DNA of 64,000 bases from Selaginella moellendorffii (taxonomy: Eukaryota > Plantae > Lycopodiophyta): the NCBI RefSeq assembly GCF_000143415.4, contig NW_003314269.1:3155060-3219059 (forward strand), given 5' to 3'. The notes below the pieces were generated by a model that made no database searches, had not been told where the DNA came from, and saw nothing but the letters and a program-made list of their open reading frames with translations. Shown here piece after piece: positions 2,998 through 37,243 of the stretch (position 1 is its first letter; each line of letters opens with the position of its first letter). The translations under genes and the position numbers were made by a program.

Positions 2998-4425
2998 TGT
3001 AGCACATGTGGTTTTCACCTTTTATCCTATGGTGATTTACCATAGGATAACCACCAAGGGAACTTAAACCACCATATACCATGTGCTATATGCTATGTGT
3101 TTAAGGATAGTGGAGTAAAACTTGAGTTTTAGGGCTTTGGGCCACTGAATGAAAGTATAGAGCTAAACTCCCAAGCTTGTAACCAAAGAACAAAGGAATT
3201 AAAGCATAGAGCAACTTTTGAGCATTTAGCCCAAAGAATGAAGGGACAAAAGCACAAAGCAATGTAGGAATAGTCTTAGAGCATCTAACATCCTAATGCC
3301 AAGACCAACAAATAAAATGAAGCCAAAAAAATATAAAGAACTAACTCTTTGAGGTGGCGTAAGTTAAAGAATGCCTAAAACCACGACCAAAATGATAAAG
3401 AGTTCATCGGATGAAACCAAGTTCGAGATCGACTCCGAAATCAAGATTGAGACCGAATTCGAGACCAAGTTTGAGATTGAGCCTGAGGTCCAAAGACCGA
3501 GCTTGAAGTCGGGTCCGAGATCGAGTTCGAGACCAAGTCTAAGGTCGAGTCTGAGATCCAATCCAAGATCAAGTCTGAGATCCAATCCAAAATCAAGTTT
3601 AAGATCGAGTTGGAGACCGAGTCTAAATATTAATACAGATCATGGGGTGAAAGCACAAAGTGTGTCTCCCGGGGGGGGAGAGGGGGGGGCTGCAGGGGTT
3701 TCTAAAAGTATTGTAGGAATAATGAGGTTTAGGAATTAATCTTGAAGGAATTCTTCAATAGTGCTTCCAAATTAACTTAAAGTTGACACTGGGGTTTAAG
3801 GGCTTTAGGTAGGAGTGAGCATGGAGTTAGATGGTGTGAGGGAGGTCACTTGAGGAAATGCTTAAGAGCAGCTCCCACTCTCGGAAGGGAAACTGACTAT
3901 GGTGCTCCCAACTCATGTGAAGTGGTGCCCCACTTGAGTATTATGTAGCTCATTGGTCTTTGCTCATTCCTAAGGGCTTAGGCCTTTCCTTTGAGATGGA
4001 AGTGGGGGAGTAGGGGTACCCACACTGAGTCATTAAGCCATGATGTTTCCCTTTGAGATCTTGAAGTAAATAATGCACCTAAGGCTTGTGAATTAAAGGG
4101 TCCCATAATCAAGTCTTATAGTACCAAGTGATTTTAGAAACTTAGAAACTTGATGTGTTTAGCTATTTGTGTTTGTAAGGAGTGTAGCCGAACCTTAAAT
4201 CTAATCTAACCAGGAGAAGGGGATTGGGAGAGAATTTTGGAATTCGTGGATGGATGGGTAACACCCCGTTGCTCGTGCAATGAGTAGTTGAAATTAAGTA
4301 GGACTAAGTAGGAGCTAGTATCATAAGTAGGAACTTTGGCAAGGGAATTTAACTAAAGCCAAGGTAGTAGTGGTCGGATGGACAAGGTAAGCTAGCAAAT
4401 TAGAAGGGAAAAATTATAGCTTACA
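2998..4425 (+). repeat. Family A 5' LTR (about 1.43 kb) with a decayed hexamer repeat block
   Basis: Starts TGTAGC, ends TTACA; homologous to 20170-21208, 38316-38660, 39613-40447, 42295-43159. Confidence 0.85.
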
Positions 4426-4428
4426 ATT

Positions 4429-4440
4429 TGGTATCAAAGC
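4429..4440 (+). promoter_or_regulatory. Primer-binding site (tRNA-iMet)
   Basis: TGGTATCAAAGC 3 nt after the LTR end; consensus TGGTATCAGAGC. Confidence 0.85.
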
Positions 4441-4484
4441 CTTTTCCTTAGTTTTAACAAAGGATAGAGGTAGATTATTAGGAG

Positions 4485-7400
4485 ATGGCTAAAGCAGAGC
4501 ATAAGAGAACCAAGGCGAAGATGGAACCTTCTCTAGAGCTGGAGCCTCAAGTCAAACAAGAAGCTATGGATGAGGAATCCTTGCATGAGGACTTTAGTGA
4601 GGAAACTTTCAAATAGGAGTCCAGTGGTGAGGTTTGGTCCTTCAAGACTTCATTAGATATTTTAGAAGGACAATTAGTATAGACTAATGCCCTATTGGAG
4701 ATTCTCATACACAAGCTAAAGCATGACAAAAAGCAGAAGAAAAATTGCAAATGTTGGCAATGCAAAAGGAGGGGACTGAGGCGGAACTGAACAAAGTTGA
4801 ACAAACCAAAGTGGAATCAATCCCTTAAGCAATTCCCAAGTACAAACCAAAACCCCCACCGGTCTTCAAGGGAGTGAATGATTATAAAGTGGTGGAGGAT
4901 TGGTTTTATGATATAAAGGATTACTTCCGAGCGTTGCATTTATTGAGCTTGGAGAAGGTCCGAAGTGCAAAACCATACTTGACAGATAATGCTAAATCTT
5001 GGTGGAGAATAATAGAGGTCAATGAAGAACTGATGGCCACTTGGGAAATGATAAAGGTAAGGATCTGTGCAACTTACATTCTTTCAAATGTTACTCTGCA
5101 CCTAAGGGATAAGCTGAATAAGCTGAAGCAAACAAGAACCATTCAAGAGTATGTGAATGCATTTATGGCAAAGAGGATACTTGTCACGGACATCGGTGAC
5201 ATGGATGCATTCCATGCCTTTATATAAGACTTGCAGACTTGGGTTCGAGACGAGGTGATGCATTGGAACCCAACCAACTACAAGGAAACATTAGATACAG
5301 CTATTAAGGTGCATTTTAATGATAACTTGTGAAAGGGGAATATAATGGGGTTAGGGTCTATATTTAGAAAATGAGCCAAACCAAGAGGGACATATAGCAA
5401 AGGAAATTCAAAAAGAGTTTCTCTAAGAATGAGTCCTCAAAGTTTTGGAAAGGTAAATTTGGTGGCCAATGAGCAAGTACAAATAGGAGTCAAGCGAAAG
5501 GGGATAAACCCACGAATAAAAAGGTTAACTCGGCTAGTAGTGTGGGAAACAACATATGTTTCAATTACTATGAAGCAGGACACTTTTCGAAAGAATGCTC
5601 CTACTCGAAGAAGGCCAAAGTTAATATAGCCATTAAGTTAGGTGAAATCCAAAGTGAGGTATATGATCCAATCCTTAGCTCAAAGTTACTCATTACATAA
5701 GAAATTTTGGTGGAGAGTCATTTGCGACATCTACTAACCCTCTCAGAGAAGCTTAGAGGTAGCTTTATTAAGATCCTTATTAATACGGGTGCCTTGAATA
5801 ATTTTATAGCTGCAGACATAATCCAGCAAGTTGGACTAATAGTGTAGCAGTTGGGTGAATCGAGGACTATAAAGTTTGTTTAAGGTGAGGTATTTTGACA
5901 AGTAAGAGTTGAAATAGGGACATGGAAAGTAAACATGGATTTCACTGTGTTTAACATAATAAGATTTGAGATGGATTGGTTCAATTGGTTTGTGGTAACC
6001 TTGTATGGAAAAGGTAGGAACTTTGTGGTACTGGCAAATGCCTGAGGAGAATAATCCAGAGTGGAGGCCTAGGATTTAAAGGTAAGGCAATATAAGGCTA
6101 AAGACTCCTGCTTGAACTTGGTGTCCATGAGAAGATAACTCATTAAAGGAACCAATACAACATTTTTGTGTGTTTACTCTCAGTCAGGAGTGACAAAAAA
6201 CAAGAATAGAAAAAGTACCTTTAGTGATATAGTAGATGTTAAACCAATTTCAAGATACCATGTTAGAAGAGTTACCGGTGGGGTTACCCCCCACATGACT
6301 GATAAAACATAAGATCAAGCTAGTCGAGAGTGCTAAGGTGATGGTTTGTCCCCTCTATCGGTTGAACGAAAAGAAACTTAAGGAGCTCAAACACCAATTT
6401 AAAGAGTTGGTGAATAAAGAGTATGTTAGGTTGAGCAAGTCATTATATGGGGCGTTAGTGTTATTTGTGAAAAAGAAAGATGGATCTGTGCACATATGCA
6501 TAGACTATTAGTTGCTCAACAAGTATACAAAGAAGAACAAAAACCCTTTACCAAGGATTGAGGACTTGTTTGATAAGTTGGGAAAGGTGAAATACTTATC
6601 AAGGATTGACTTAAGGTCAAGATACTACCAAATCATGGTAGCAGAGGAAGATGTCGAGAGACAACCTATCAGACAAGGTATAGAAGCTTTGAGTTTCTGG
6701 TGATGCCCTTTTGAATGTCTAATGCACCAGCAAAATTTTTGGCACTGATGAACCATATTATTGTACCATATCTGGATCATCGTGGTCATCTATATTAACG
6801 ACATCCTGATCTATAGCGAGACATTACAGGAGTATGTTGAACACTTGAAACACAAGTTATATGTTAAAGAGAGTAAATATGACTTTGTTCAATAAGAGGT
6901 AAAGTTTCTAAGGCATATGGTGGGCAAGGATGAGCTCAAGATAAATCTTGAGAAAGTTTAAGTGATTCAGGAATGGGAATGACCATTGAATATACACTTG
7001 TTAAAGGCATTCTTAGGGCTATGCAACTACTATCGAAAGTTTATCAAACAATATTCAAGAGTAACTTTACCTTTAATGGACCAAACGAAAAAAAGGAAGA
7101 TAGTATAGATAGTGGAATGTTAGGCGGCATTTGTCCATTCAAAGGGAAGTTGAGGAAGACTCCTGTGTTGGCATTACTAGGATTTAGTAATAACTTTGAG
7201 GTAGAAACAGATGCTTCAGACTTTGTGTTGAGCACAATTTTGAAGCAAAATAACTATCAAGTGGTGTTCTTTTCGAAGAAGTTGAACAAAGCTTAGCAAA
7301 AATGGCTTGCCCATGAGAAGGAATTATTTATGGTGGTCAAGGCACTCAAGGAGTGGTGACTCTACCTTGGGAAGCACTTCAAAGTTTACATAGATAATGT

Positions 7401-7764
7401 GGTAATGAAACACTTTTTGTCTCAACTTGAATTATGAGGAAAACAAGGTTAGTGGGCCAATGCTTTGGTTGAGTTAGATTGTGAGATTTTGTATAAACCT
7501 AGGAAGAGCAACATCATGGCAAATGCTTTAAGTCGAAAAGCAAGCTTGAAATTAGCAATGTCTAGTGCGACAATAATCTTTTGGGATGATGTATAGATAG
7601 TGTATTAGAAGGATGGTCTAGCATAAGAAGTGTTGCTAAGGAACCAAAAGGTGCGGGATGCTCATTAGAGAGGTGAGTTGTTGACTAAAGAAAAAACAGG
7701 TTATGCAAAACACAATAGACTCATCTATTATAAACAAATGAGGGTGTATGTTTCACAAGGGGAA
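4485..7764 (+). pseudogene. Family A gag-protease-RT-RNaseH, with many stops and frameshifts
   Basis: Gag-like YLTDNAKSWW and LNKLKQTRTIQEY; RT PLPRIEDLFDKL..SRIDLRSRYYQI and VVIYINDILIYS; RNaseH FEVETDASDF..VVFFSKKLN. Confidence 0.9.
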
Positions 7765-8225
7765 TGTAAGCGATTAAATTTTCCATTCTACTTTAGTCGC
7801 TTAACCGCACCTCCGACTAGTTGGAGGAGTCTCAATCATAACCCCCATAAGTCCTTCTCAGGACTTGGGGCTTGCTAGCCCCGAGAATGGCATCCATGCC
7901 ACTCAACCTTTGCACTTGGTCTAAGTGCTCCATGTGTTCGGTCCCATGACCGACACCCCAAGGCACCACCAACATACCAGCCCGTTATGCTAGGCCATGC
8001 CCAATCACCTTGGTCACATCGGTGGTCCAACACCACCTGCATTGCAATCCCGTCTTTCCAAGACTGGGCCATCCGTCCATGAGTGGTCATCCTAGATCCA
8101 CTCCTTAGCATCCTTAGGATGCCCACAAACATGGGGAATAGCCTACCCCAATATCTCCTTTCTGGTCCCCACTAAGTCCCTCTCTGTCCTTGGCCGTGTT
8201 CGCCAACACTGCCACTGGATCAAGG

Positions 8226-8726
8226 TGTGAGACACAAAATCCCTAGGCCCCAAAGTGGAGCCGGAAAGGGTGCCACGTGGTAGTGGCTGAAGCGAGAGCC
8301 AAACGAGCGTAACACGTTTGGACCAAAAGCTCCGACTTGAAAAGTCAAGAGCGGGAGTGGAACTCCCAACGAAGTGCTCGAGGAACGAGCACGAAGCGAG
8401 CAAAAAGCGAGGCTCCAAAAAGGGACCCAAAAGGACCAACACATGACACGTGGAAGTGTCCGAGATGGACTCGAGTTGGAGTCCGAAGTGGAGTCCGAGA
8501 TGGACTCGAGTTGGAGTCCGAAGTGGAGTCCGAGATGGACCCGAGTTGGAGTCCGAAATGGAGTCCGAGATGGACCCGAGATGGAGTCCGAGATGGAGTC
8601 CGAGATGGACCCGAGATGGAGTCCGAGATGGACCCGAAATGGAGTCCGAGATGGACCCGAGATGGAGTCCGAGATGGAGTCCGAGATGGAGTCCGAGATG
8701 GAGTCCGAAGTCGAGACCAAGACCGG

Positions 8727-8758
<32 letters not shown>

Positions 8759-9898
8759 TCGGGACCGAGACCGAGACCGAGGCCGAGGCCGAGACCGAGC
8801 CCGAGCCCGAGCCCGAGTCCGAGTCCGAGTCCGAGTCCGAGTCCGAGTCCGAGTCCGAGTCCGAGTCCGAGTCCGAGTCCGAGTCCGAGTCCGGAGCCTG
8901 AGAGGGTGAAAGCCCAAAGCGTTCGTCTCCCAGACCCTGGGGGGTTTGGTGAGCTCCAAAAGTATAGTAGGGGGAGGACTGCAGTGGAGCCAGTTTGGCC
9001 AGGAAAGGCCAGTTTGGCCCAGGAAGGCCGGACCCAGTGTTGGGTGATGAGCTGCCCACTGGGAAGTCCAAGACTAGAGTGAACACGGACCGACAAACGG
9101 GGTAGCTTGGTGAAGTGTTCAAGAGCCGGCTCTAGTTCCCCCGGGAGATCGACGGGCCGATGCTCCCAGTCCAAGTGTGGGTGGCACTACCTACTTGGAT
9201 ACCTGGTGTGGCTCAACGGAACCCGCTCTAAGCCCATGGCTAGAGCACCCAAGGGCAGAAGGCGAGGAGAGTACCCAGGTGGCTCGCGTAAGGCCACGGT
9301 GTTCCGAAATGTTGTCCCAAAGGCCCAGACTGTGGAAAGGAAGAGGATCAGTCCTCTGGGGTAGTGACCAAGGACACAGTCGGGTGGTGAGGAAGTCCCA
9401 AAGGACTGTGGGACTTAGTGGTCGGGCCTGTGGGTCTCGATCCAGTGGCAGTGTTGGCAAACACGGCCAGGGGCAGAAAGGGACTTAGTGGGGACTGACA
9501 GAGGGATATTGGGGAAGGCTATTCCCCTTGTCGGTGGGCATCCTAAGGATGCTAAGGAGTGGATCCGAGATGACCACTCACGGATGGTTTGCCTAGTCTT
9601 GGAGAGCCAAGACTGTGATGCAAGTGGTATTGGACTACCAGTGTTGCAAAAAGGTGATTGGGCATGGCCTTAGCGTAACGGGCTGCTATGTCGGTGGTAC
9701 CTTTGAGTGTCGGTCATGGGATCGGACACGTGGAGCACTTGGACCAAGTGCAAATGTTGAGTGGCATGGATGCCATTCTCGGGGCTAGCAAGTCCCAAGT
9801 CCTGGATTGGACTTATGGAGGTTGTGAATGAGACTCCTCCAAGTGGTCAGAGGTGTGGTTAAGTGACTAAAGTAGAATGGAAAATTTAGTCGCTTACA
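8226..9898 (+). repeat. LARD 5' LTR (1673 bp)
   Basis: TGTGAG...TTACA; near-identical to 14050-15686. Confidence 0.95.
8461..8892 (+). repeat. Minisatellite/hexamer array in LTR: (GAGATGGAGTCC)n, (GAGACC)n, (GAGCCC)n, (GAGTCC)n
   Basis: Directly visible; repeated at about 14284-14680 and, antisense and more decayed, at about 16222-16780 and 18795-19030. Confidence 0.95.
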
Positions 9899-12402
9899 AT
9901 TTGGTATCGGAGCTGTTCCTTAGTCCGACTTTTATTGGTGCTCAAGTATATCACCACTAGTGTTGGCATCGGAAGGTCCGAGAAGTGGGCTTATCCTTGA
10001 GGAGTAGCAAGTCGGGAAGACATGGCTCTCCATTACAGTTCATGTGTGAACTTGTAGACGAGGTGGTGGATAAAAAAGGGCCAATAATGGAACGACTTTG
10101 GGATCTTGGGAACAGTATATGGTTTTCCTCAAAGAGTTGAGGATGTGATCCAGATGAGCGTTTGACTTAGCAAACTGGCTAATGTAGTTGTGGTAAACAA
10201 CTACAGTTGGGATCACGGGAAAGATAAAGACTCCAAAGCAATAAAGGAGTCACAAGATTTTCCTCATATAGTTGAGGTTGGTCCTCATGAATGTGAGACC
10301 AGAAGTAATGACCGTGGGAGGTCAAATACGGAAGAGGACTCAAGTCCTTGAAATGGTAGCCGGGGCTACCTTTAATAAATGCTGGAACAACCCAAGGAGT
10401 TGGGGGGTGTACTTAGAGATGAGTGGTATTCTCATCGCATGGACAAGTAGTCCTAAGGGGCAAAAGTTGCCTCCAGAGAACAAAATCAAGTGTCGGAGTA
10501 ACACTTGTGAAAATAGTCCTTTTGAGTAGGACAGGAATGCAAGAAGTGTATTCCAGTGAGCTAGTGCCTCACAAGTAGGACCTTACGGGTATGTGGATTA
10601 ACCAAGTCCAAAACTGCTGGATGACTCAAGTAAAGTCAACGGATGGTCCTAAAAGGACTAATGGAAGCATTTGGACTGTGGTGTGTTGTACCCCACAAAG
10701 GATGGGGGGGGGATCATAGGATCCAAGGATGAGAACAGAGGGTATCTCATCGATGGCAAAATGTGCCATGCTAAAGTTATGGGAAAGGTGTTCCCAGAAG
10801 AAAACAACTTTGACATAAAGTTGTGTGTGACCTCTATGGTGCAGTGCTAACGGATGGTTGGCATGAGAAAGAGCGGTGTTGGTCTTGGCAAAGACTTAGA
10901 CACGAAGGGGAAATGTCATAGAGGTAGGCTCGTGGAGCCGATGGGGTGGAGACACCAAATGTGCCAAGGTGTGATACCTTGAGGCTATGTTGGTGGGTTC
11001 ATGAGAACCCCTTGCCAAAGGAATCCCAATGGAAATGGGAATAGCATAGCCTAAGTTGCAGAGCATGCAGTTGGAGTGTGGTGACCCAGATAATGATGGA
11101 GGTGTGAAAGCACCAAGCAATGAGTTGTAGGACTTGACAACTATGAGGCAACTAAGCAAGAGGTGCAAAATAACTAGTTACACGGGTAGAAGGTAGCTAC
11201 CCAAGACTTCTTAATAACATAAGGAAGTTGGATATACCCTTACGGGGGATAAGTTGCTTGTGTTGCGATATAGTAAGTCAATGTCATAAAAGGAAATACT
11301 CATTGTCAAAAAAAAAAAAAAAAAAAAAAAAGCCATCATTGGGACACCCGAACACTCTAGAACACCAGAAGGTGGTGTTTGATGTCGCGAGGGCAATGGA
11401 TAAAGCCCAAGGGACTAAGTCCCTAGCGAATGATGGATAGAAGGTGCTATCCAAATGTCCAAGGTTACGGAGACAGGAGAGGACTGTCTACCCGAGTTGG
11501 ACAAAGCCAAAAATGGAATTTTGGCAAGGCTAGTGATGGGCATGCAAAGGCCCATAAGCAACAATGTAATCCCAGTGTGTGGGATTATAAGGTGAGCATA
11601 CCCGGATTGAGGAACCACTCCCTAGGCTATTGGGTAGGTTCATCCCTAAGAATACTTGCTAAAGCATGATAAAAAGTGCAAAGCTATCCTCCTGGTCTAG
11701 AGGAGAATGACCAAAGGAAAGGTGTGAAGCCAAAAAGCAAGAAGTAAGGGGATAGAACCGAACCGTAGGAATCAAAGGGCATAACCAAGGTTGGTTATGC
11801 CAGCTGGGAGTGGAGAATCAAGTGGGGGCTCGAGGGTGTTGCCGCTAGCAATCGTGATGCTATGGAGAGTCTAAAATATGGAATTGTCCATGCTAGACTA
11901 TGTGGCATTTGGAAGGCTTGCAAAAAGGGAGGCCTTAGCAAGCTGAGGGACAGAGTTCCTTCAAGGTTCCCAAAGATGATTCTAGGTAGCTTAGTACCTA
12001 GAAAGGCTAAGTGTAAATGGTTCATGGAATGCGCGAAATCAGAGTGGCGCAGCAGAAGCGTGGTCTTGAAGCTTGCCATGAGGCAAGGCTATCAAGGTTA
12101 GGGAAGTAGTTCCCGAGTGTTCAAAGAGAGGGCTTTGAACGAAAGTCGATGGTCAAGGACTTTCACGCTTATGCAGGAACCATGTTACAGTGGTCGGAGG
12201 ACTTGCCAAGCGAGATTGGCACGTCGGGGGAACAAATACCCTAGTTGAAGGTGATAACTTCAAAAAGGGTGGGCCATGGGGCCGAGCATGGAGGAGTCCA
12301 TGCATGATCACAAACATGTCAAGTGAGAGGACTTGGCAGTGTGGAGGAACTAGGTTCCTAAACTGTGATCTGTAGCGCGCTTTAAAAATAGGTTGGTGCA
12401 CC

Positions 12403-12815
12403 GGCGTGGGGAGTCACGCCAGGCATCTTGTGTGATGCCTTCCGTAGATGCATATACGGAGGTTGGGTTCGAGTCCCGACCCTCTAGTGCTTGGGTTCGA
12501 GTCCCAAATCACTAGGGCGTGGTGATGGTTTGGAATATGAGGACACTCATATTTCGGTGATCATGGACTCTCAGTGGGGAGACTGGTTTGGGCACACCTC
12601 AAAGTGAGGGATGCCTCGGAGTCGTGATGCACGGTTAGATTGCTTAGAGTGAAAGCTCGGCATATCTAACTTAAACGCTTTGGTGCAAGTGGCACCAAGG
12701 TCGTGGTGAGTGAGATGGGGACACCTAATCTCAGTTGCTATGAACCCTTGGCCGTAAGGGCTAGCTTGGGTGCACCGCCAAGTGTGGGGGATGCCCCCGG
12801 GGTTATAGTCAACAA
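12403..12815 (+). ncRNA. Candidate structured cis-RNA element in the LARD with two TTCGAGT T-loop hairpins
   Basis: Back-to-back stems GGCGTG/CACGCC, AGGCATC/GATGCCT, TCCGTA/TACGGA, GGTTGGG/CCCGACC, CTAGTG..TTGGG/CCCAA..CACTAG; homolog at 19909-20115. Confidence 0.55.
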
Positions 12816-13815
12816 CTTGGAGGTCTAGAAGACCAAGTACCTCTTAGCAACTCTGTTAAGGTGCCAAGGTGAGATCACTAGGTGATCTTATGGCCAGATA
12901 AGGACAAGGTCCTTGGTTGGCTAAGGAATGAAGTTCCTGGTTCAAAATGTTGAAATTGAACTGTTTAAGGTGGTGTGGCTTGGTCGTGATGACCAAGTGG
13001 GAAGAGCACCTAAGGGAAATAAACTATGTCCGTGCGATGGTATAGTGAGTCCGAGGAAAGTAGTCTTTATAAAAGACCCATGGGAGGGTCACGAAGTTGG
13101 GCCGTGGATAGAGCCCATAGCAGAAGATGCTAAAGAGACGTACTAGGGGTGAATATCCTCCGGACTTGGCAAAGAAGAGTCTTTGCTATGGAACCGAAAG
13201 GATACCTCAAAAATGGAGGTAGCGATCCTATGTTGCTGGGTGCAACAATCAAGGATAGGAGCAAAGGACTAGTGGCCAAGTTTGGGCCATGGAATTTACT
13301 GGAAGGGATCCAAATGGCAAAGTTAGCCAAGGAACACTAATGTGTTCGGTGCTAACAGCTTGTGGGAAAGGAAGTGGACTTCCAAGGATGGATTCCTAAG
13401 TGCTCCAATTTGGCAAAGTAAAAGCTCCAAGTGAGGGAGCGGTAAGGTAGCCAAATGATAGGGCTATGGACAGCCCTAGCACAAAGTATGATAATTGGAA
13501 CTTAGTGCCCAACGTGGCACGAAATAGAAGAGAGGATGATGGTGCCTTCAAGTAATGAACTTCCTAGGATGGGGAAGTGGAGTTGCACAATCTGTGCAAT
13601 GCAAGGTGTTGGAGACACCTAGGAAATTGACTTCCAAAAGTCAAAAGAGTAAAAGTTCCAAGGTGCAAACGTTCAATAGATGGAAATTGAGACTACTTGA
13701 GAAGGAGTAATGGGATTGACTTAGAGAAGGGTCTCTAAGAGGTTTAGCGAGAACCACTACATGTGGTCCAATCAGTCTCTAAGTTGGGGAGACTACCCTC
13801 CTTAGGGGATAGGCA

Positions 13816-13945
13816 AGGCATGGTGAGCCTTTGGTGTCAAACCATTGAGGAAAATGCAAAAGGCATGGTGAGCCTTCAATGTCAAACCATTGACAAGTAT
13901 GGAGAAGGCATGGTGAGCCTTCAATGTCAAACCATTGACAAATAT
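13816..13945 (+). repeat. Three tandem 45-bp repeats upstream of the LARD polypurine tract
   Basis: AGGCATGGTGAGCCTT....TGTCAAACCATTGA units begin at 13816, 13861, 13906. Confidence 0.9.
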
Positions 13946-14049
13946 TGGCTAGGTGCCAAGGATGGAAATGGTAACACATGCGGGTGTTACTTTATAAAGT
14001 GGTTTACCGTTCGATGAGGACATCGAACTTCGTCTATGGGTGGTGGAGT

Positions 14050-14550
14050 TGTGAGACACAAAATCCCTAGGCCCCAAAGTGGAGCCGGAAAGGGTGCCAC
14101 GTGGTAGTGGCTGAAGCGAGAGCCAAACGAGCGTAACACGTTTGGACCAAAAGCTCCGACTTGAAAAGTCAAGAGCGGGAGTGGAACTCCCAACGAAGTG
14201 CTCGAGGAACGAGCACGAAGCGAGCAAAAAGCGAGGCTCCAAAAAGGGACCCAAAAGGACCAACACATGACACGTGGAAGTGTCCGAGATGGACTCGAGT
14301 TGGAGTCCGAAGTGGAGTCCGAGATGGACTCGAGTTGGAGTCCGAAGTGGAGTCCGAGATGGACCCGAGTTGGAGTCCGAAATGGAGTCCGAGATGGACC
14401 CGAGATGGAGTCCGAGATGGAGTCCGAGATGGACCCGAGATGGAGTCTGAGATGGACCCGAAATGGAGTCCGAGATGGACCCGAGATGGAGTCCGAGATG
14501 GAGTCCGAGATGGAGTCCGAGATGGAGTCCGAAGTCGAGACCAAGACCGG

Positions 14551-14582
<32 letters not shown>

Positions 14583-15686
14583 TCGGGACCGAGACCGAGA
14601 CCGAGGCCGAGGCCGAGTCCGAGTCCGAGTCCGAGTCCGAGTCCGAGTCCGAGTCCGAGTCCGAGTCCGAGTCCGAGTCCGGAGCCTGAGAGGGTGAAAG
14701 CCCAAAGCGTTCGTCTCCCAGACCCTGGGGGGTTTGGTGAGCTCCAAAAGTATAGTAGGGGGAGGACTGCAGTGGAGCCAGTTTGGCCAGGAAAGGCCAG
14801 TTTGGCCCAGGAAGGCCGGACCCAGTGTTGGGTGATGAGCTGCCCACTGGGAAGTCCAAGACTAGAGTGAACACGGACCGACAAGCGGGGTAGCTTGGTG
14901 AAGTGTTCAAGAGCCGGCTCTAGTTCCCCCGGGAGATCGACGGGCCGATGCTCCCAGTCCAAGTGTGGGTGGCACTACCTACTTGGATACCTGGTGTGGC
15001 TCAACGGAACCCGCTCTAAGCCCATGGCTAGAGCACCCAAGGGCAGAAGGCGAGGAGAGTACCCAGGTGGCTCGCGTAAGGCCACGGTGTTCCGAAATGT
15101 TGTCCCAAAGGCCCAGACTGTGGAAAGGAAGAGGAGCAGTCCTCTGGGGTAGTGACCAAGGACACAGTCGGGTGGTGAGGAAGTCCCAAAGGACTGTGGG
15201 ACTTAGTGGTCGGGCCTGTGGGTCTCGATCCAGTGGCAGTGTTGGCAAACACGGCCAGGGGCAGAAAGGGACTTAGTGGGGACTGACAGAGGGATATTGG
15301 GGAAGGCTATTCCCCTTGTCGGTGGGCATCCTAAGGATGCTAAGGAGTGGATCCGAGATGACCACTCACGGATGGTTTGCCTAGTCTTGGAGAGCCAAGA
15401 CTGTGATGCAAGTGGTATTGGACTACCAGTGTTGCAAAAAGGTGATTGGGCATGGCCTTAGCGTAACGGGCTGCTATGTCGGTGGTACCTTTGAGTGTCG
15501 GTCATGGGATCGGACACGTGGAGCACTTGGACCAAGTGCAAATGTTGAGTGGCATGGATGCCATTCTCGGGGCTAGCAAGTCCCAAGTCCTGGATTGGAC
15601 TTATGGAGGTTGTGAATGAGACTCCTCCAAGTGGTCAGAGGTGTGGTTAAGTGACTAAAGTAGAATGGAAAATTTAGTCTCTTACA
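14050..15686 (+). repeat. LARD 3' LTR (1637 bp)
   Basis: 36 bp shorter than the 5' LTR within the hexamer array; about 4 substitutions seen by eye. Confidence 0.95.
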
Positions 15687-17012
15687 CAAGGCCCATAGGC
15701 CCGACCATTAAGTCCCACGGTCCTCTGAGACTTCCTCACTGCACGACTGTATCCTTGGTCACTACACCAGAGGACTACTCCTTTCCACAGTCTGGGCCTT
15801 TGGGACAACATTTCGGAACACCGTGGCCTTACGTAAGCCTCATGGGTACTCTCCCCACCTTCCGCCTTTGGGTGCTCTAGCCATGGGCTTAGAGCGAGGT
15901 TTCGTTGAACCATGTCTGGTATCCAAGTAGGTAGTGCCACCCACACTTGGACTAGGAGCATCGGCCAGTCGATCTCCCAGGGGAACTAGAGCCGGCTCTT
16001 GAACACTTCACCAAGCTATCCCGCTTGTCAGTCCGTATTCACTCTAGTCTTGGACTTCCCAATGGGCAGCTCATCACCCAACATTGGGTCCAGCCTTCCT
16101 GGGCCAAACTAGCCTTTCCTGGCCAAACTGGCTCCACTGCAGTCCTCCCCTTACTATACTTTTGGAGCTCACCAAACCCCCCAGGGTCTGGGAGACGAAC
16201 GCTTTGGGCTTTCACCCTCTCAGACTCGAACTCGGACTCGGACTCAGACTTGGACTCGGACTCGATCTCGGTCTCGGTCCCGATATCGGTCTCGGTCTCG
16301 GTCTCGGTCTCAATCCCGGTCTTGGTCCCGGTCTTGGTCTCGACCTCGGACTCCATCTCAGGTCCTTCTCGGACTCCATCTCGGATTCCATCTTGGGTCC
16401 ATCTCAGACTCCATCTTGGACTTCGTCTCGGACTCCGTCTCGGTCCATCTTGGACTCCATCTCGGGTCCATCTCGGACTCCATCTCGGACTCCATTTCGG
16501 GTCCGTCTCAGACTCAATCTCGGATCCATCTCGGGTCCACCTCAGACTTCACCTCGGACTCCATCTCGGACTCCATCTCGGATCCATCTCGGGTCCACCT
16601 CGGACTCCATCTCGGGTCCGTCTCGGACTCGATCTCGGGTCCTTCTCAGACTCCACTTCGGACTCCACTTCAGACTCCAACTCGGGCCCATCTCGGGCTC
16701 CACTTCGGACTCCACTTCGGACTCCAACTCGGGTCCATCTCGGGCTCCACTTTGGACTCCAACTCGGGTCCATCTCGGACACTTCCACATGTCATGTGTT
16801 GGTCCTTTTTGGGCCCTTTTTAGAGCCTCGCTTATTGCTCGTTTCGTGCTCGTTCCTCGAGCACTTCATTGGGAGTTCCACTCCCACTCTCGACCTTTTC
16901 AAGTCGGAGCTTTTAGTCCAAACATGTTACGCTCGTTTGGCTTTCGCTTCAGCCACTACCACGTGGCACCCTTTCGGCTCCACTTTGGGGCCTAGGGATT
17001 TTATGTCTCACA

Positions 17013-17404
17013 TGGAACTTAGGAAGGTAGCTTTAGAAAAGTGTCATGATGGACCTCTTGTGGGATATGGCGTAATGCCTAAAATGATGGGCTTACTTAA
17101 GAGGAAGTATTATTGGCCAAACATGGTTAAGGATGTCTAAGATTATGTAAAGACATGTTCAATATGTCAGCAGATTAAAGTCGTGACTAAAGCTAGTGAA
17201 GGCTTGTTATAAAGCATCCCAATTCCTGATTGTCCATGGAAATGTTTTACAATAGACTTCATCATGGGACTTCCCCCAAATAAGGGGTTTTATGTAATGT
17301 TTGTGGTGGTGGATCGGTTTTTTAAAATGGCATATTCCATACCCATCATAATAGAAGTGGATGCAGAAGGTATGGCAAAGCTGTTATTCGAATAAATGGT
17401 AGTT
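17013..17404 (+). pseudogene. Family A integrase N-terminal zinc-finger and core fragment
   Basis: CHDG..KRKYYWPNMVKDV*DYVKTCSICQ, PIPDCPWKCFTIDFIMGLP, FVVVDRF. Confidence 0.88.
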
Positions 17405-19259
17405 CATGTGTCCAATCCCATGACCGACACCTAAAGGTACCATTGACATATCAACCCATTACGCTAAAGCTATTTTCATTCACCCTTGTCACATCGGTAG
17501 TCCAAAACCACTGTAAGAAACTAAAGGGAATAATTCGAGAGATGATCCATAAGTGTTCAAATATAGAAGGAAAGGGCCCATGAACAAAAGTGCACCCCCA
17601 TTTTGAATCAATTAAGGGTCTTGGGATACTTAGGGTCAAGCGTCCTTGGGTTTAAATAGTACTGGGTTGGGTGACCTCCCAAAAAATCCAAATTTAAGGA
17701 GCTTACATTTAGTATTGGAGTAGTCTCGGGTGTAACTCTATTAGTTGGCTAGAGGAATCGCATCACATGTTAATTGACATTTGGTAGATCTAATTTGCTC
17801 CCACTGGGCTTGACCCGAGGGATAGGGTGTTAAGAGAGCGAATCTCTCGAGCTGTGACTTTTAGCTTCCATTCACGAGAGCGTGAACTTGCAGGGAAGCG
17901 GGGTGGATTATAAGCAACCAAAGGGAATGATTCGAAAGATGATCCATCAGGGTTCAAATATAAAGGGAAAGGGCCCATGAACGTGCACCCCCTTTTTTTA
18001 ATCGGTTAAAGGTTTTGGGATACTTAAGGTTAAGTTTCTTTGGGTTTAAATAGCATTAGGTTGAGTGACCTCCCAAGAAGTCCAAATTTAAGGAGCTTAC
18101 AACATTACAATCTTTGTCTCTTAAAGACTGGGCCATCCACCCATGAGTGATCATCCCTTGACCACACCATAATACCCCTAGAATGTCCGAAGACATGGGG
18201 AATACCCTTCCCTAATGTCCTTCCTCTTATCCCCACCAAGTCCCTCTTCATCCATAGTTATACTCACCAACACTACCATTAAATCAAGGCCCAAAAGCCC
18301 GACCACTAAGTCCCATTGTCCTCAGGGACTTCCTCACCTTGTGATCGTATCTTTGATCACTACACTAGAGGACTATTCCTCTTCCTTTCCACAATCTGGG
18401 ACTTTGGAATAACATTTCAAAAATTGTGGCCCTACATGAGCCTCATGGGTACTTTCCCCACCTTTTGCCTTTAGGTGCCCTAACCATGTGGCTAAAGCAA
18501 TGTTTTGATGAGCCACGCCAGGTATCCAAGTAGATAGGACCACCCACACTTGGATTGGGAGCATCAACCATTCGATCTCCTAGGGGAGCTGGAGTCAATT
18601 TTTGAACACTTCACCAAGCTACCCCGCTTGTCTATCTGTATTCACTATAATCTTGGACTCCTTTGTGGTTTTATTATCACCCACCACATGAGTATATTCT
18701 TCCTTGATCACATTGGTCTTTCTTGGTTAAACTGGCTCCACTAGAGTCCTCCCCCTACTATACTTTTGGAGATGAACGCTTTGGGCTTTCAGCCTCAGAC
18801 TTGGACTCAGATTCGGACTTGGACTTGAACTCGGTCTTAGACTTGGTCTTGGACTCGGTCTTGGTCTCAATCTCAGTCTTGGTGTTGGCCTTGGTCTTGG
18901 TCTCAATCTCAGTCTTAACCTTGGACTCCATCTTGGGGCCATCTCAGACTCCATCTTGGATCCATCTCGGACTCCATCTCAGACTCCATCTTGGGTCTAT
19001 CTTAGACTCCATCTTGGGTCCATCTTGGACTCCTTATCAGGTCTATGTTGGTCCTTTTATATTTTTTTTTTAGAGACTCATTAATTGCTTGCTTTGTCCT
19101 CATTCCTTGAGCACTTTGTTGGGCTTCCACTCCCACTCTCAATTATTTAAGTTGGAGCTTTTAGTTCAAATGTGTTACCCTTGTTTAGCTTCCATTTTAA
19201 CCACTACCATGTGGCACCCTTTTGGCTACACTTTGGGGCTTAGGGATTTGTGTTTTACA
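17405..19259 (-). mobile_element. Older, diverged family B LTR (antisense, one end missing), interrupted by Cassandra
   Basis: Collinear with the reverse complement of the LARD LTR, with many transitions; ends ..GATTTGTGTTTTACA. Confidence 0.8.
17512..18101 (+). mobile_element. Cassandra TRIM (5S rRNA-derived domain in both LTRs)
   Basis: LTRs 17512-17707 and 17909-18101; GTCAAGCGTCCTTGGG..TAGTACTGGGTTGGGTGACCTCCC matches the plant 5S internal promoter; degenerate iMet PBS about 17710-17721; PPT AGGGAAGCGGGGTGGA; about 200-bp non-coding interior. Confidence 0.88.
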
Positions 19260-19774
19260 ATCAGAAACGCTGGGACGTAGAGTTCCAACCTGGGGAAAAG
19301 GTATGGCTAAACTAAGGTTACCAAGTGGGATTAGCCAAAAGTTGACTAAAAAGAAAATGTATGTATTCTTGGAAATAAACTAATTTTAAGTTCCTTAAGT
19401 AGGTTTGCAGGGTCTTATGAAATTAAGGCTTAAATTGGTAAAAGGGTTACTACCTTAGACTCCCTTGAAAGATGGGGCCTGTGTTCCACATGAATTTACT
19501 TAGGCCGTATTTTGAGGATTCGCTTTGTAAGGGCCAAATAAAACTTTTACCTAAGGTTATTCAAGGGGAAGAGGAATATAAAGTTGAAGCCATCCTCAAT
19601 ATAAACAAGAGCAAACAACAAATATGTGAGGTGAGGGAGTTTCATGTGAAGTGGAAAGGATTTCCACATTACGAAGCAACATGGGAATCAAAAGAGAATT
19701 TAGCAAATGTGCCAGATTTGGTGAAAGAATTATGGCAAGGTAAAACTCTATGTATTTATGTAAAGTTCAATTAA
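19260..19774 (+). pseudogene. Family A integrase C-terminus (GPY/F-like module) and chromodomain
   Basis: RFAGSYEI..PVFHMNLLRPY, then EEYKVEAIL..FHVKWKGFPHYEATWESKENL. Confidence 0.9.
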
Positions 19775-19908
19775 AGTATCCATTTGTGAAAATGAGCAAT
19801 GTCACATATTGGGACTTGAAGGCATGCCGAAAGTAAGCTAATTAGCATGGGTTAACTAAGTCAACCAAGCATAGTTAACTACGCCTAACTCTTTATGGGG
19901 ATGTCAAA

Positions 19909-20115
19909 TCCATATACATATTTTATGGAGGTTGGGTTCGAGTCCTAAATTTCTAGTAAAGTAAGGATGGGTTCAAGTCCCAGCCTTATACTAGGGTGTG
20001 ATGAGGTGAGGGGTATAGGGATATTTATATCCCGTTGTCATTGGCTTTTAGTTAAAGAAGTTGGCTTAGGCATACCGTTAAGTGGGGGAATGCCCTGGAG
20101 ACATGGTCAACAAAT
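19909..20115 (+). ncRNA. Homolog of the twin T-loop structured element, in the chromovirus 3' UTR
   Basis: TCCATA/TATGGA, GTTGGG-TTCGAGT-CCTAA, CTAGTA..TAAGG.TGGG-TTCAAGT-CCCA.CCTTA-TACTAG, GGGATAT/ATATCCC. Confidence 0.5.
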
Positions 20116-20169
20116 CATAGGATTAAAAAGAGATGTTCAATGTGGGCATCAAGCTTCTTTTATGGGTGG

Positions 20170-21208
20170 TAAAAAACCAACTCCTTGAGGTGTTGTAGGA
20201 TAAATGATCTCTAGAACCACAACTGGAATGATAAAGAGTTCATTGGATGAGATTGAGTCCGAGATCAAGTCCAACACCAAGTCTGAGGTTGAGTCTGAGA
20301 TCTAATACGAGATCGAGTTTAAGATCTAATCCAATATCAAGTCCGAGATCCAATCCAAGATTGAGTCCAAGATCGAGTCTAAGACTGAGTCTGAATACTA
20401 ATACAAGTCGTAGGGTGAAAGCCCAAAGTGTTCATCCCATGGGACAGAGGGGTGGCTACAAGGGGTTCCAAAAGTATAATAAAGATAGTGAGGTTTAGGA
20501 ACCAGTCTTGAAGGAACTCTCTAGTAGTACTTCTAAACTGACTTAAGGTTGAGATTGGGGGTGAGGGGCCTCAAGTGGGAGTGAGTATGGAGTTAAGTGG
20601 TGCTAGAAAAGCCATATGAAGAAGTGCTCAAGAGCAACTCCCACTCCCGAAAGAGAAACCAATTGTGGTGCTCCCAATTCATATAGTGTGGTGCCCCACT
20701 TGAGTACCATGTGGCTTATTGATCCTCACTCTTTCTTAGGGGCTTGGGCCTTTCCTTTGGGATGGAAGTGGGGGAGTAGGGATACTTATATTTAGGGATA
20801 CTTATATTGGGCTATTAGGTCATAATGTTTCCTCTTAGGGTCCCAAAGTAAGTGATGCATTTAAGACTTGGGATTTAGAGGGTCCCATGATCAAGTCTTG
20901 TGGTACCAAGAGATTTTAGGAACTTAGAAGTTTAGTGTGCTTAGCTGCTTGTGCTTGTAGGGAGTGTAGTAGAAACTTAAGTCCAGTCTAACCTGGGAAA
21001 GGGGATTGGGAGAAAATTTGGGAATCCATGAATGGATAGCTAACACCTCATTGTTGATGCAATGAGTAGTTAAAGTCAAGTAGGACTAAATAGAAGCTAG
21101 TACCATAAGTAGGAACTTTGGTAAAGGAATTTAACTAAAGCTAAAGTAGTGGTGGTCGAATGGACAAGGTAAGCTAGCAAATCAGAAAAGAAAAATTTGT
21201 AGTTTACA
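20170..21208 (+). repeat. Family A 3' LTR (first ~330 bp missing), followed by a PBS and a gag start to about 21360
   Basis: Collinear with 3330-4425; ends TTTACA; then TAGTATCAAAGC and ATGGTTAAAGCA matching 4429-4580. Confidence 0.85.
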
Positions 21209-22234
21209 ATTTAGTATCAAAGCTTTTTCATTAGTTCTAGTGAAGGATAGAGGCGAATTGTTGAGAGATGGTTAAAGCAAGGTGTAAGAGAACCAAGTTG
21301 GAGATGGAACCTCCTCTAAAGCTGGAGCTTTCAGTTGAACAAAAAGTTATAGATGAGGAATTAAAAGATTTAAAAACTAGGCCAAGTATACTCAACAAGA
21401 AATACATAGGAGTTCCTACTTTATATTCATCTGGCTAAGTCCAGATGCTAAGCTTAATTTTTTAACACTTAAACAAGAGGGGCTAAAAAAGGAACTAGCA
21501 ATACTAACTTCTTGCTATCATGGTAGTAAGGAAAGAATATTTAAATGAATTAGCCAAAAAGTAACTTTTAATACCCACAATCACATTTGCGATAATAAGC
21601 TCTAAATTAGGAATCCCCCGCATACACCCTTTCTTCCCTGGCAACACTCCATCTTTTTCTTTAGACTCTTTATTGGTTTCTTCTTCTAGGGTTGGCTTTC
21701 CCTTCTTCTTGGACTATAGTAAGTAGTTAATATCCTTGATCACAATAATTGCCTTGTTGGAAAAACAAATAACTCTAACTATCTATTTATAGAAACTTAT
21801 TTAAACCTTACCAACAAGTTTAGTTTGTTTGCTCATGAGGCTCTATGTCACTTGGAAATAAAGGTATATCAGCTTTTGTAAGTTGGGTGACATTTAAAGT
21901 AGCAAAAGTGGCTAACTCTATTAGTCATTTTCTTGTTTGTGATGGTCAGAAAGTGTATGAGTGGTAGCACATTTGCATTAAACAAACCATAATTCATTTA
22001 ATTTTAGTGCATTTCTCACAAAATGTGAATATTGTGAACTTTTCCTAAAGTTGTTTTTTTAGTGGTGGTCTAAATTAAAGTGTGCATCAATGAAGATGGC
22101 AATCTTTTCAAAAGGGGGGAGCATGTCATGAATGTGACAGTGGGTATCAAAATTTACCTGTTAATGATTCCTTTCAAATTTCCTTTGATAGTTCTTTTTA
22201 TTTAAGTGTAGTAAAGTTGTTCCTTGGCTATAAG

Positions 22235-26793: not shown

Positions 26794-29700
26794 AGTGAGT
26801 GCATGGAATATGGAAAGAGAATACAGAAAATATGCATATAAATTAGCCCAAAAACCCTAGCTTATATACAGAAACAAGTGGTTCAGATTGAAATCAATCT
26901 ATAGCTACCAAAATTCCATTACACTAATATTAGTATATAGCATTGTAGTTATACACTTGGACCTCATATCATCCCCTCATTTCAGAATGATGGAAAATTG
27001 TCAAAGTTCTCTCGTAAATGGGTTGGGATTTGGAAGAACATTAGAAAGAGGCATCGGTGGATTTGTAGGTGGTATCAGTTATTCATGATCCCTTTGTACC
27101 AAGTATTTTAGCCATTGCATATGCACAATTTCTAAAGAATCGGCCTGTTGGACATTATGTTGAACCTCATAAACTTGTGATCAAACTTGCCACAACACCT
27201 AATACGATCTTTTCCACTGAACAAAAGAGATGATAAATAACCATCCTAAATTGAATGCTGAAAGTTCACGTACTTCGTGATTATCCCTTTGAAGGTTTGA
27301 ATGAGCCATTCCACTAAATTGTCTAACTATGAATGATAAACACTCATGGAAGTGTGGCATATCCCTAACCAAGATGTCAAAACATGAAATGCCTTAGCCA
27401 TAAATGTAGGACAATTATCCGAAAGAATCTGCTATGAACAGGAATGCTGGAACACCACTCAATTAAAGAGGAAGTATCCAACAATAATTGCAGGTGCACT
27501 AGCAAAAGCACCAACTTCCATCTAATGAGTCAAATAGTTAGAAGCAATAATGACATACTCATTGTTAACAAATGATCATGGAAAATGTCCTATAAAATCA
27601 AATGCCACCAACTCAAATGAACAGGAAATTACAATTGACTTTAACCATCCTTCTATAACACAAGGGGGAGTATTACGAGCTTGGCACCAAATGTAGCTAC
27701 GCACATACTAGATAACATCATGTTGCATCTTTAGCCAATAGAAAGATTTGTGCAACTTTTCGGTCACATGACAATATCCCATATACCCACTTAGAATAGG
27801 AGAATCATGGTATGCTTGGAGAAAGCATAGAAGAAAGATTGAAGGTAGCACCAGTTAAATGATTATTAGGATCCATCCCCACAAAATAAAGAAGATTATT
27901 TTTAAAGTGATATTGAGAATGTAAATGCTAAAATGGCAAGTCATCAACAAGTGATGCAAAATTTTCAAACCTATTGCAAAGCCTTTGAATCTATAACTCA
28001 ATCTTTTGAGCTTTGCGAACCTTATCAAGAGAAGGTAAATCTTGCTTTACACCTTATAGACACTGAATGTCAAGTATAACAACCACCGATGGCATAAAAT
28101 CCTTGTTAAAAAAATCTATAAATGATAGAATAACAAGCTTATAAAAAACCTGAGAAGAAAGTGAAGAAAGAAGAAAAGCTCAAGAAACAACATTAGCATC
28201 AACCATAAAACTCTTCGGGCGATGAACCACATCAAAATCATATATATAAAGCTTTAAAGCCCACTAAGCAGTATGATCAACTAAGTTCTTCCACTTTAAT
28301 AATGAAGTAGCTATAGCATGATCACTTTTTAATAACGTTTGAGAACCACATACATATGCATGAAGTTTCTTGAAACCCCAAACTATTGCTAAACACTCCT
28401 TCTCTGTTGTGGAATAATTCATTTTGGCAAGTTGCAATATATAGTTGATATATGCAATAAGATGGTGCTAATTAGGCACACTTGGACTCTCTTGCATTAA
28501 CACACCTCTCAGGCCAATATTAGAAGCATCCATGTGTAAAATAAAAGGTCAAATATAGTCAGGATACGCTAAAACTAGAGGAGCTGTCAATAGCTTTTTG
28601 AGATTTTTAAATGCCCACTCACAGTTTACAGACCAAATGAAAGATGATGTTGACAACTTCAACAATGCTTACAACGGTGCAGTATGATAAAAAAGATGAT
28701 CAACAAAATGACTGAGATACTGCATCTTGCTCAAGAAGTGTTGTACATCATTCACACATTTTAAAGTAAGGAACTTTAGAATAGCGACAAGTTTGTCATG
28801 ATCAACTTGCAAACCCTCACGAGAAATATGGTACCTAAGATAAATTGTGTCATTGGACCCAAACATGCACTTCAACCATTTTATCTTTAAATTAACTTCC
28901 CATAGCCAATCTAACACTTTATAAATATTATGGATATGTTCTTCCCACATTCCCTCTAAGTGGATTAAGACATCATTGATGACGTTAGTGATCACCTTCA
29001 GTATATCGCAAAGAACCTCATCTATTATCCACTAAAATGTTGCTAAAACATTGTTCAAATCAAATGGCATCACCAAGAACTCATATAAACCAAATGGTGT
29101 ATGAAAACTAATCTTAGAAATATCCTTTTCGGCCATCAGTACTTGTCAGTACCTAAAAGCAAGATTTAACTTGGCAAAGCAACGACTTCTCCCTAGACGA
29201 TCCAAGAGATCAGTAGTGTGAGGAAAAAGGTACATATCCAGGATTGTCACTTTGTTTAACAAATGATAGTTGATGCAAAAATGAATACTCCTATCAAGCT
29301 TTATCACAAAATGAGGTTCACATACTGAAGGACTCTGTGACTTCTAAATAACACCTTTTTCCAACATTTTCTTGATCTCTTTGGATAATTGTCAACGAAC
29401 AAAAACTTTGATTGGAAAAGCTTCCCCAATTAGAATACGATGATGTGTTGCAATTTTGGCCCCAAACAATAAGTCAAATTCAAAGAGATTGGCATACTCC
29501 TTCATGAGTCGATCAACCACTGCAACATAAAAACTGTCGGAGGGATTAGAAAAGGGAGAGCAGAATAAGACAGAAATATAAAAAGAAGTAGTAGGGGGAT
29601 AAAAGTAATGGAAGTAAAGGTAGAAGCAAAGGGACGAAGAGGTATAAAAGTGAGAGTAATAGATGAAATGTAAAGAAGTATGAGATAAGGAGGAGAAACC

Positions 29701-32446: not shown

Positions 32447-32856
32447 TGTGAGGGCCAAGTGTACGGCTACGATGCCGTATACTAATATTAGCGTAGTAGG
32501 ATTTTGGTAGCCGTCGGATTGGTTTCAATCCGGACCACTCGCTCTTGTATATAAATAAGCTAGGGTTTTTGGGCTAATTGATATGCATATTTCTGTATTC
32601 CCTTTTATATTCCATGCACTCACATTGGTGGAGGTGAGGGGCACCTTTAATTGTCCCTGGGGAGTGCTTGGATTTGGGATTTCGGTTTAGATCTAGCTTT
32701 TGCATTGTGTAGATCTAGCTTTTTCCATTTCCTTTCTTTTATTCTTTCCTTTCAGGATTTTGGTTTAGATCTAGCTTTTTGCATTGTCTAGATCTACCAT
32801 TTCTTTCAGCTTTTTGTCATTTCTTTTCTTTTGCTCTTTCTTTTTCATTCATCTTC

Positions 32857-33768: not shown

Positions 33769-33818
33769 TGGAGGGATCTTGCGCGAATAAGTTAAACCCT
33801 AAACCCTAAACCCTCCAT
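33744..33818 (+). promoter_or_regulatory. -1 programmed ribosomal frameshift signal (slippery heptamer plus H-type pseudoknot)
   Basis: G_GGA_AAC in phase with gag; 6-nt spacer; stem 1 TCGCACGAG/CTTGCGCGA; loop ATGGAGGG pairs with CCCTCCAT at 33811-33818. Confidence 0.75.
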
Positions 33819-36800: not shown

Positions 36801-37243
36801 AATTGTCACGAGCTCCTGATGCTAGGTCATGGGATCAATATTTGACAAACATTCTTCCACTTGTCTGAGCAGAGTCTGCTGAACACTTAGGCCGCGTACA
36901 AGTGGGACAACAACGGCGCTACAATTCCCATTATCATCCACCTACGGAGTACAAAGTGGATGATTTGGTGTTAGTCCGTTTTCCCCATCTTACGGTACAT
37001 GGTTTATCTAAGGGGCTCCTTGCGCAGTGGAAAGGACCGTATCGGGTGTTGCAGCAAGTTGGACCACAAGTTTATGAGGTTTGGCATTACGTTCAGCAAG
37101 CCGATCCTCCGGAGATTGTGCATGTGCAGCGGTTAAAACGCTTCATACAAAGGGATCAGGAGCAGTTAATACCGTCTACAGATCCGCCGATGCCTCCTCC
37201 TGACGTTCCTCCAGATCTCGGCCCATCTACAAGAGAACCCTGA
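33812..37243 (+). pseudogene. Family C pol (PR-RT-RNaseH-INT), single frame with three premature stops
   Basis: VLVDIG (protease), LILGMDWL, RFCIDY, FTKLDLASGYWQV, MPFGL, FIDD, VDTSDIGLGG, YSTTEKECLA, HH-CC, DLMGP, SDNG, HPQSDGLVE, WKGPY; stops at 33962, 35282, 36866; no chromodomain. Confidence 0.95.

Follow-up and report, generated by a model that had tools for sequence, protein, structure and literature searches.

To our knowledge, the way in which plant LTR retrotransposons and their gene-less parasites select RNA for particles is poorly defined, and no mapped packaging signal for chromoviruses was found in the literature searched. The question is raised by a stretch of 64,000 nucleotides of Selaginella moellendorffii (contig NW_003314269.1, positions 3,155,060 to 3,219,059 of the forward strand), hereafter the window, in which a non-coding LARD is nested in a decayed chromovirus and both elements carry a related structured module with two look-alikes of the tRNA T-arm. 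What have a parasite and a chromovirus kept in common, does selection act on it as DNA or as RNA, and what could it do for an element devoid of genes?

Genomic context of the two elements

The window starts with a host gene 98% identical to a Selaginella moellendorffii protein. The chromovirus, family A (2998-21208), is a decayed Ty3/gypsy element with gag, RNase H, integrase and chromodomain, interrupted by nested insertions. The chromodomain is found at the integrase C-terminus (19469-19771, + strand; PF00385, E 1.8e-13), downstream of the gag, RNase H and integrase pieces, and it is this C-terminal chromodomain, together with the Ty3/gypsy gag-pol order, that identifies family A as a chromovirus. 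Its 5' LTR spans 2998-4423; its 3' LTR (20178-21208, + strand), from which roughly the initial 340 nt of that 5' LTR are missing, is 77% identical to it. After the shortened 3' LTR come a further primer site and a gag start (20170-21361), which suggest a tandem or recombined arrangement.

The LARD (8226-15686, + strand) is a young non-autonomous LTR element inserted in the family A pol gene. Its two LTRs (8226-9898 and 14050-15686, + strand) differ at only 4 of 1636 aligned positions, and it displays a 5-bp target-site duplication (CAAGG), a primer site of the tRNA-Met type near 9900-9914 and a polypurine tract. The longest + strand frame of its 4.1-kb interior encodes 110 aa, the 10 longest + strand interior frames have no Pfam match, and tblastx against the family A interior returns nothing convincing (best E 0.006, inside the module). 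The LTRs of the two elements are related (65-70% identity over stretches of 130-270 nt), which therefore indicates a common lineage, and both elements have a tRNA-Met primer site.

The LARD is inserted within a solo LTR that belongs to its own family and has the reverse orientation (7765-8225 and 15692-17012), and a second, older reverse solo LTR of this family lies further along the same pol gene (18103-19260), family A pol being a repeated target of LARD-family insertions. The LTRs of both families contain tandem 6-, 11- and 12-nt repeats (3420-3620, 8458-8880 and 20248-20400). Elsewhere, the window carries a second Ty3/gypsy family (32449-37449) with LTRs of about 177 bp that are 95.5% alike and long gag-pol frames, adjoining an inverted decayed copy (26795-31313); the T-arm hairpin is absent from this family. 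Two neighbouring GTP cyclohydrolase II/riboflavin-synthesis-like genes (57198-59310; PF00925 at 58969-59310) are apparently a tandem duplication.

Architecture of the shared RNA domain

Apart from the priming sites, the module is the interior sequence that the LARD retains in common with family A, together with a single 19-nt match (E 0.016). An initial reading made from the sequence only had seen no other similarity between the two interiors. This was too strict, since the tRNA-Met primer site and 36 nt preceding the polypurine tract (14009-14044 against 20135-20170; 81% identity, E 0.001) are also common to both, in addition to the related LTRs. The hairpin of this polypurine-tract region, located before the LARD 3' LTR (14009-14049, + strand) and common to family A (20135-20170), has a fold that is not significant alone (z -1.0 and -1.7).

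In the LARD, the core domain (12396-12632, + strand) is predicted to form a multi-way junction closed by a 5-bp helix (12396-12400 with 12628-12632; mean P 0.88) that is not confirmed in family A. It begins with three abutting hairpins, H1 to H3 (12403-12460, + strand), whose stems are common to both elements and whose loops are not conserved. These are followed by T-arm mimic 1 (12461-12481, + strand), a 7-bp stem capped by the loop TTCGAGT, and by T-arm mimic 2 (12482-12517, + strand; z -4.2), in which an outer 8-bp stem, an internal loop and a 5-bp stem lead to the same loop. The core then continues with a block (12518-12623, + strand) whose first part (12518-12565) is a long arm with a GACA loop and whose second part (12566-12623) is a three-way junction. 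Downstream are two more hairpins (12633-12701, + strand; z -6.0 for 12630-12702), with no counterpart seen in family A, and a diverged duplicate of the block with the same fold (12702-12804, + strand). The stems first noticed at 12403-12420, 12421-12440, 12441-12460, 12461-12481 and 12484-12515, and the GACA-loop stem at 12532-12555, are all present; the extension of the module to 12815 proposed at that time corresponds, in its 3' part, to the second copy of the block.

The family A copy (19868-20102, + strand; z -3.0) lies in the 3' untranslated region, 94 nt past the chromodomain stop. The initial reading had placed a homologue just after this stop; it is indeed there and begins earlier than described, at about 19868. 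It comprises, all on the + strand, H1-H3 (19868-19929), T-arm 1 (19930-19950), T-arm 2 (19951-19996), a GACA-type arm (19997-20042) and the junction (20043-20102). The distance from the domain to the downstream LTR is 248 nt in family A and 1590 nt in the LARD.

The named LARD stems have helix probabilities of 0.91-0.99, and the region 12400-12820 has a folding energy of -194.8 kcal/mol (z -7.4), none of 100 shuffles being equally stable. Among 42 sliding segments of the LARD interior on the + strand, the most stable is 12400-12519 (z -5.8); many others also have z below -2, and the minus strand of the module folds well too (z -6.7). A cloverleaf-like long-range pairing of 12415-12420 with 12516-12521 was rejected, as it costs about 5 kcal/mol more than the local H1, and so was a palindromic dimerisation loop in H3, which is not retained in family A. 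The tip of the three-way junction carries a short sequence motif with irregular pairing, kept in all three versions of the block (12595-12611, 12773-12791 and 20073-20090), a candidate for protein binding. Across versions, the GACA loop is preserved as well.

Selection acts on the structure of the sense RNA

As the GACA-loop arm and three-way junction occur twice in the LARD (12518-12623 and 12702-12804) and once in family A, three versions can be compared, with 55-68% identity at paired positions (37 of 62 paired letters identical between the two LARD copies). Across these three versions, which come from one genome and were aligned in pair registers set by hand from predicted folds, so that the counts lean toward the model, pairing is kept in 89 of 93 cells. 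Two-sided changes affect 10 of the 31 pairs, two of them by transversion, which methylation decay cannot give. In LARD copy 2, 30 of 31 pairs are retained, where the null gives a mean of 23.7 (sd 1.3) and reaches this number in 0 of 20000 cases. On the + strand, G-U cells number 23 and A-C cells 1, or 13 and 0 in the undecayed LARD copies. The middle stem of family A T-arm 2 was left out of these pair comparisons.

This covariation and the plus-strand G-U bias therefore indicate that selection acts on the structure of the sense RNA. The module is thus very probably a cis element operating at the RNA level, in agreement with the initial proposal of a cis-acting module common to a gene-less element and a chromovirus lineage.

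The same data bear on the hypothesis of a neutral relic, made of captured tRNA ends or of repeat-derived T-arm look-alikes that have no current role. In its favour, tRNA genes often have duplicated T-arms next to them, the 3' half of the motif has look-alikes among the LTR repeat units, and LARD interiors are generally structured. However, two-sided and transversion changes that keep pairing largely refute a neutral origin, and the rest of the 4.1-kb LARD interior has no likeness to family A. A relic is therefore extremely unlikely.

Decay, population variants and expression

Between the LARD and family A, the module shows 67% identity over 180 nt (E ~5e-6). When 251 genomic contigs from run X1 were aligned on the family A copy, 37 of 261 positions differed. 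At 24 of these 37, the window has T or A where relatives have C or G, the reverse being observed at 9; this excess therefore indicates that the copy present in the window has decayed. Both compensatory pairs cited in the initial reading combine a G-to-A with a C-to-T change, which methylation decay can also produce. The first (TCCATA/TATGGA) is not clean: 19912 is a G in 67% of the depth with 19926 unchanged, so that relatives have a G-U pair there, and the neighbouring pair is broken in 21% of the depth. The second (CTAGTA/TACTAG) stands, with no listed variant. The mismatches that the window shows in the stem of family A T-arm 1 are absent from relatives, where the stem pairs throughout (C at 19946, 19949 and 19950; 87-98% of the depth). 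None of the 37 listed variants affects the 14 T-loop positions of family A, an absence that is not significant alone given 37 variable positions out of 261. The depth of family A contigs jumps from about 9,000 to 150,000 and the contigs mix several sequence sets; several sets thus carry the module, some being far more abundant than the window copy.

The LARD stretch is covered by 14,661 genomic contigs of run X1 over 751 nt, a contig depth that does not equal copy number, and one full-length contig was obtained from run X6, presumed to be RNA but possibly DNA. The LARD variant at 12478 (36% of the depth) turns a U-G into a U-A and keeps the pair in T-arm mimic 1; another, at 12508, lies within the internal loop of T-arm mimic 2. 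Polymorphic sites are rarer in 12403-12660 (3 of 258) than in the flanks (22 of 393; Fisher p 0.003), in a comparison that includes 40 of the 84 LARD variants and whose boundary at 12660 was set after the fact. In 12661-12815, variability is at the level of the flanks (11 of 155), with several variants that break the MFE pairing.

In the raw RNA data, one run of 1,382 million letters, a single read falls on the LARD stretch and three on the family A stretch. All RNA reads on the module stretches are less than 90% alike and come from diverged relatives. The LARD and family A are nearly silent in this sample.

Mimicry of the tRNA T-arm

The motif GGTTCRAGTCC occurs four times in the window, always within the two modules (0.04 occurrences expected; none of 100 shuffles reaches four), confirming that both TTCRAGT loops are kept in the LARD and in family A. 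At all four sites, a 7-nt GUUCRA loop caps a stem of at least 4-5 bp. The loops of the two elements differ solely by G or A at tRNA position 57, and a purine at this position fits the T-loop consensus GUUCRA, as given in the available text of 10.1101/202747. The same text reports that 7-nt GUUCRA hairpin loops of mRNAs are methylated by TRMT6/61A, the tRNA m1A58 enzyme.

The module is nevertheless neither a tRNA nor a tRNA-like structure (TLS): it has no acceptor stem, CCA or D-loop equivalent, and the loops of H1-H3 differ between the elements. ARAGORN calls no tRNA in it, and the suggested search for a known Rfam family finds nothing at the gathering threshold (two chance miRNA matches, E 0.9-3). 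These results weigh on the idea of a tRNA-like cleavage, modification or stability element, which would direct RNase P/Z-type cutting, protect an end or release a small structured RNA. According to the part of PMC4919913 that is available, RNase P requires T-loop-like structures to cleave substrates other than tRNA; GUUCRA loops in mRNA are methylated, and the predicted closing helix gives a compact domain. Without acceptor stem, CCA, conserved D-loop or any ARAGORN or Rfam match, the tRNA-mimic processing site of the initial reading finds no support. Furthermore, cuts inside genomic RNA would stop replication, and the very few RNA reads on the module show no accumulation of ends. Such a function is unlikely.

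The presence of two T-loops side by side in elements that both have a tRNA-Met primer site had also evoked a platform of interlocked T-loops docking the elbow of the primer tRNA-iMet, and viral RNAs have been suggested as a place to look for the double T-loop motif (PMC4919913, available part). However, the elbow receptors described there, those of RNase P, T-box and L1 stalk, consist of two pentanucleotide loops interlocked head to tail. Although the module resembles this interdigitated motif in having two T-loop-capable sequences near each other, each loop caps, in the predicted secondary structure, its own hairpin and copies the full 7-nt tRNA loop. The spacing of the T-arms differs between the elements (28 versus 35 nt), and the domain is 2.5 kb from the LARD primer site. 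What holds of this proposal is the adjacency of the two loops; docking is very unlikely. Judging from their sequence and predicted folding, the loops are mimics of the tRNA T-arm, that is of the ligand, and resemble the receptor less.

Both loops also match the B-box consensus, and the module could act as DNA, as a twin B-box binding TFIIIC and serving as an insulator, an anti-silencing or targeting site, or a Helenus-like Pol III promoter. Indeed, S. moellendorffii harbours a Helenus TRIM with tRNA-derived boxes (PMC10886601, available part), and some repeat units of the family A LTRs match the B-box consensus, which gives three further B-box-like 9-mers in each LTR. On the other hand, the covarying stems, some of them far outside the box, and the plus-strand G-U bias need RNA. 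The only A-boxes near the module are one-mismatch look-alikes that are not common to both elements, there is no T4 run within 600 nt in the LARD (12500-13100), and the site is internal, outside the LTR. The B-box likeness noted initially thus stands, and TFIIIC binding is quite unlikely to explain the module.

Relatives elsewhere and the VL30 repeat

No plant homologue of the module was found in scans of viral contigs and metagenomes, and a module-specific 24-mer has no match in the viral contigs. The twin T-arm pattern has 21 matches in viral contigs; 17 of them have tRNA genes nearby, being mostly T-arm duplications, and tblastx of the 21 against the window elements shows no likeness. In metagenomes, it has 24 matches: 14 in mouse retroelements, 8 inside or next to tRNA-like sequence (7 with ARAGORN tRNA predictions and L030 judged by eye) and 2 in tandem repeats. 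The latter are 25-30-nt repeats with T-arm-like units on non-coding contigs (L032 317-510 and L025 1940-2186). No description of the module was found in the literature, within a coverage that excluded most subscription journals and Repbase; the supplementary element sequences of PMC10886601 and PMC6317226, outside this search, may hold related elements.

The 14 mouse matches (L022-L024, L026, L028, L031, L034-L038, L040, L043 and L044; L022 2964-3150) belong to one gammaretrovirus/VL30-type family, whose Gag matches the capsid of murine leukaemia virus. The gag start is visible in 13 of the 14 contigs and an upstream primer site in 10. Just upstream of the gag start, the leader, or packaging region, carries a tandem array of 2-5 repeats of 38 nt, and every unit can fold into a T-arm hairpin. 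The repeat unit is the published VL30 26-nt motif (PMC8615591), also named 'SEV enrichment motif', which has been linked in print to packaging and to the loading of vesicles and for which the authors report BLAST matches with vector Psi signals (available parts of PMC8472637 and PMC8615591). As reported in the accessible text of PMC8472637, the repeat alone confers an approximately 600-fold vesicle enrichment in human cells in the absence of viral proteins. The authors credit a long double-stranded fold rather than the loop; the word 'tRNA' has no occurrence in the main text of that paper, and the T-arm reading of the repeat is therefore our own. The motif occurs in 36 of 86 full-length VL30s and is dated to about 4.4 Myr (PMC8615591, available part), and mouse VL30 Psi has no known consensus according to what is accessible of PMC4859993. 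The likeness with VL30, which comes from a motif search and concerns one non-homologous family, would be a convergence; it is a lead, not proof.

A possible recruitment or packaging signal

From structure to function, every step is inferred. The constraint bears on sense RNA, which the parasite and the helper alike have to bring out of the nucleus and into particles. The reading that we favour, on account of the T-loop copies, of the m1A58-enzyme substrates with the same loop and of the box B precedent of brome mosaic virus (BMV), is a cis-acting recruitment or packaging signal for the element RNA, to which we would give somewhat less than an even chance. The Gag of the helper element, perhaps with host T-arm-binding proteins, would select genomic RNA through the domain. 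Recognition of the T-arms, and probably their modification (m5U54, Psi55, m1A58), would proceed as in tRNA, and binding would route the element RNA into particles. The LARD would have kept, and partly duplicated, the domain because it must borrow helper proteins in trans.

Packaging has points against it. Twin T-arms arise easily beside tRNA genes, as in 17 of the 21 viral matches. The domain is 3' or internal, whereas the classical Psi of retroviruses has a 5' place and their export elements lie 3'. Retroviruses and mouse LTR elements have their CTE, RTE and MTE export elements just after pol, where the domain lies as well. Host readers of tRNA arms could let unspliced RNA leave the nucleus or move between cells, and a non-coding parasite needs export as well; the covariation evidence fits export equally. 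However, the domain lacks the acceptor arm and mature tRNA ends on which exportin-t depends. The vesicle enrichment of the VL30 repeat without viral proteins points to a host pathway, but the authors of that study credited the double-stranded fold (PMC8472637, available part). Export or trafficking is the main rival reading, conceivable and rather doubtful.

If the packaging reading, or that of trafficking, is true, the domain would be a first defined signal of this kind for a plant chromovirus. With about 230 nt, clear covariation and its presence in both the parasite and the helper lineage, it is small enough to be probed, bound and moved onto a reporter.

Comparison with known systems

Family A resembles SM1/SM2-Galahad, with which it shares an LTR longer than 1 kb, a poly-G tract, a tRNA-Met primer site and a classical chromodomain (PMC3350952), in a comparison based on LTR and primer-site features; the accessible description of these elements includes no structured 3' UTR. 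Protein searches did not single out a clade for family A. The LARD is comparable to Sukkula-type LARDs, which are also large and non-coding, with a primer site, a polypurine tract and conserved predicted RNA structure, and whose description, in the available text of PMC7215508, includes no T-arm mimic or helper-shared module. Conserved folding of LARDs was already known in general (same source).

Like the TRIMp3 elements (Helenus, Ajax and Cassandra), the LARD is a non-autonomous LTR element with a small-RNA-like sequence. However, as far as PMC10886601 is available, TRIMp3 stay under about 1.3 kb, have a promoter made of A and B boxes within the LTR, and show no conserved folding. Membership in Helenus or TRIMp3 was rejected, since the LARD is 7.5 kb long and its motifs are internal, limited to the B-box, conserved in fold and also found in a coding element.

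In VL30 as here, repeated hairpins with an identical 7-nt loop occur in both a non-autonomous LTR element and a coding relative, and one VL30 repeat folds into an outer stem, a bulge and a T-arm that resemble LARD T-arm mimic 2. Unlike the module, the VL30 repeats lie in the 5' leader, are tandem and young, do not occur in all VL30s and are not homologous to it.

The other precedent is box B of BMV RNA3, needed for recruitment by protein 1a (PMC5869524, available part) and presented in the title of Baumstark and Ahlquist (2001) as a TpsiC stem-loop mimic modified in vivo. Like the module, box B mimics a T-arm from an internal, non-coding site of a replicon RNA; according to the same accessible material, it is a cis signal for recruitment by a replication protein. 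BMV is, however, an RNA virus with a single box B, whereas the module has two T-arms within a larger covarying domain of an LTR retrotransposon, and no homology is expected. It is possible, and still speculative, that T-arm mimicry is a recurrent and unrecognised code for RNA selection in retroelements, evolved independently by a lycophyte chromovirus with its LARD and by mouse VL30-type elements, as by BMV, in which host T-arm readers or modifying enzymes would license the RNA for packaging or export. If the T-arm loops are the working part of the domain, they would link plant retrotransposons to BMV box B and provide a new reading of the VL30 repeat.
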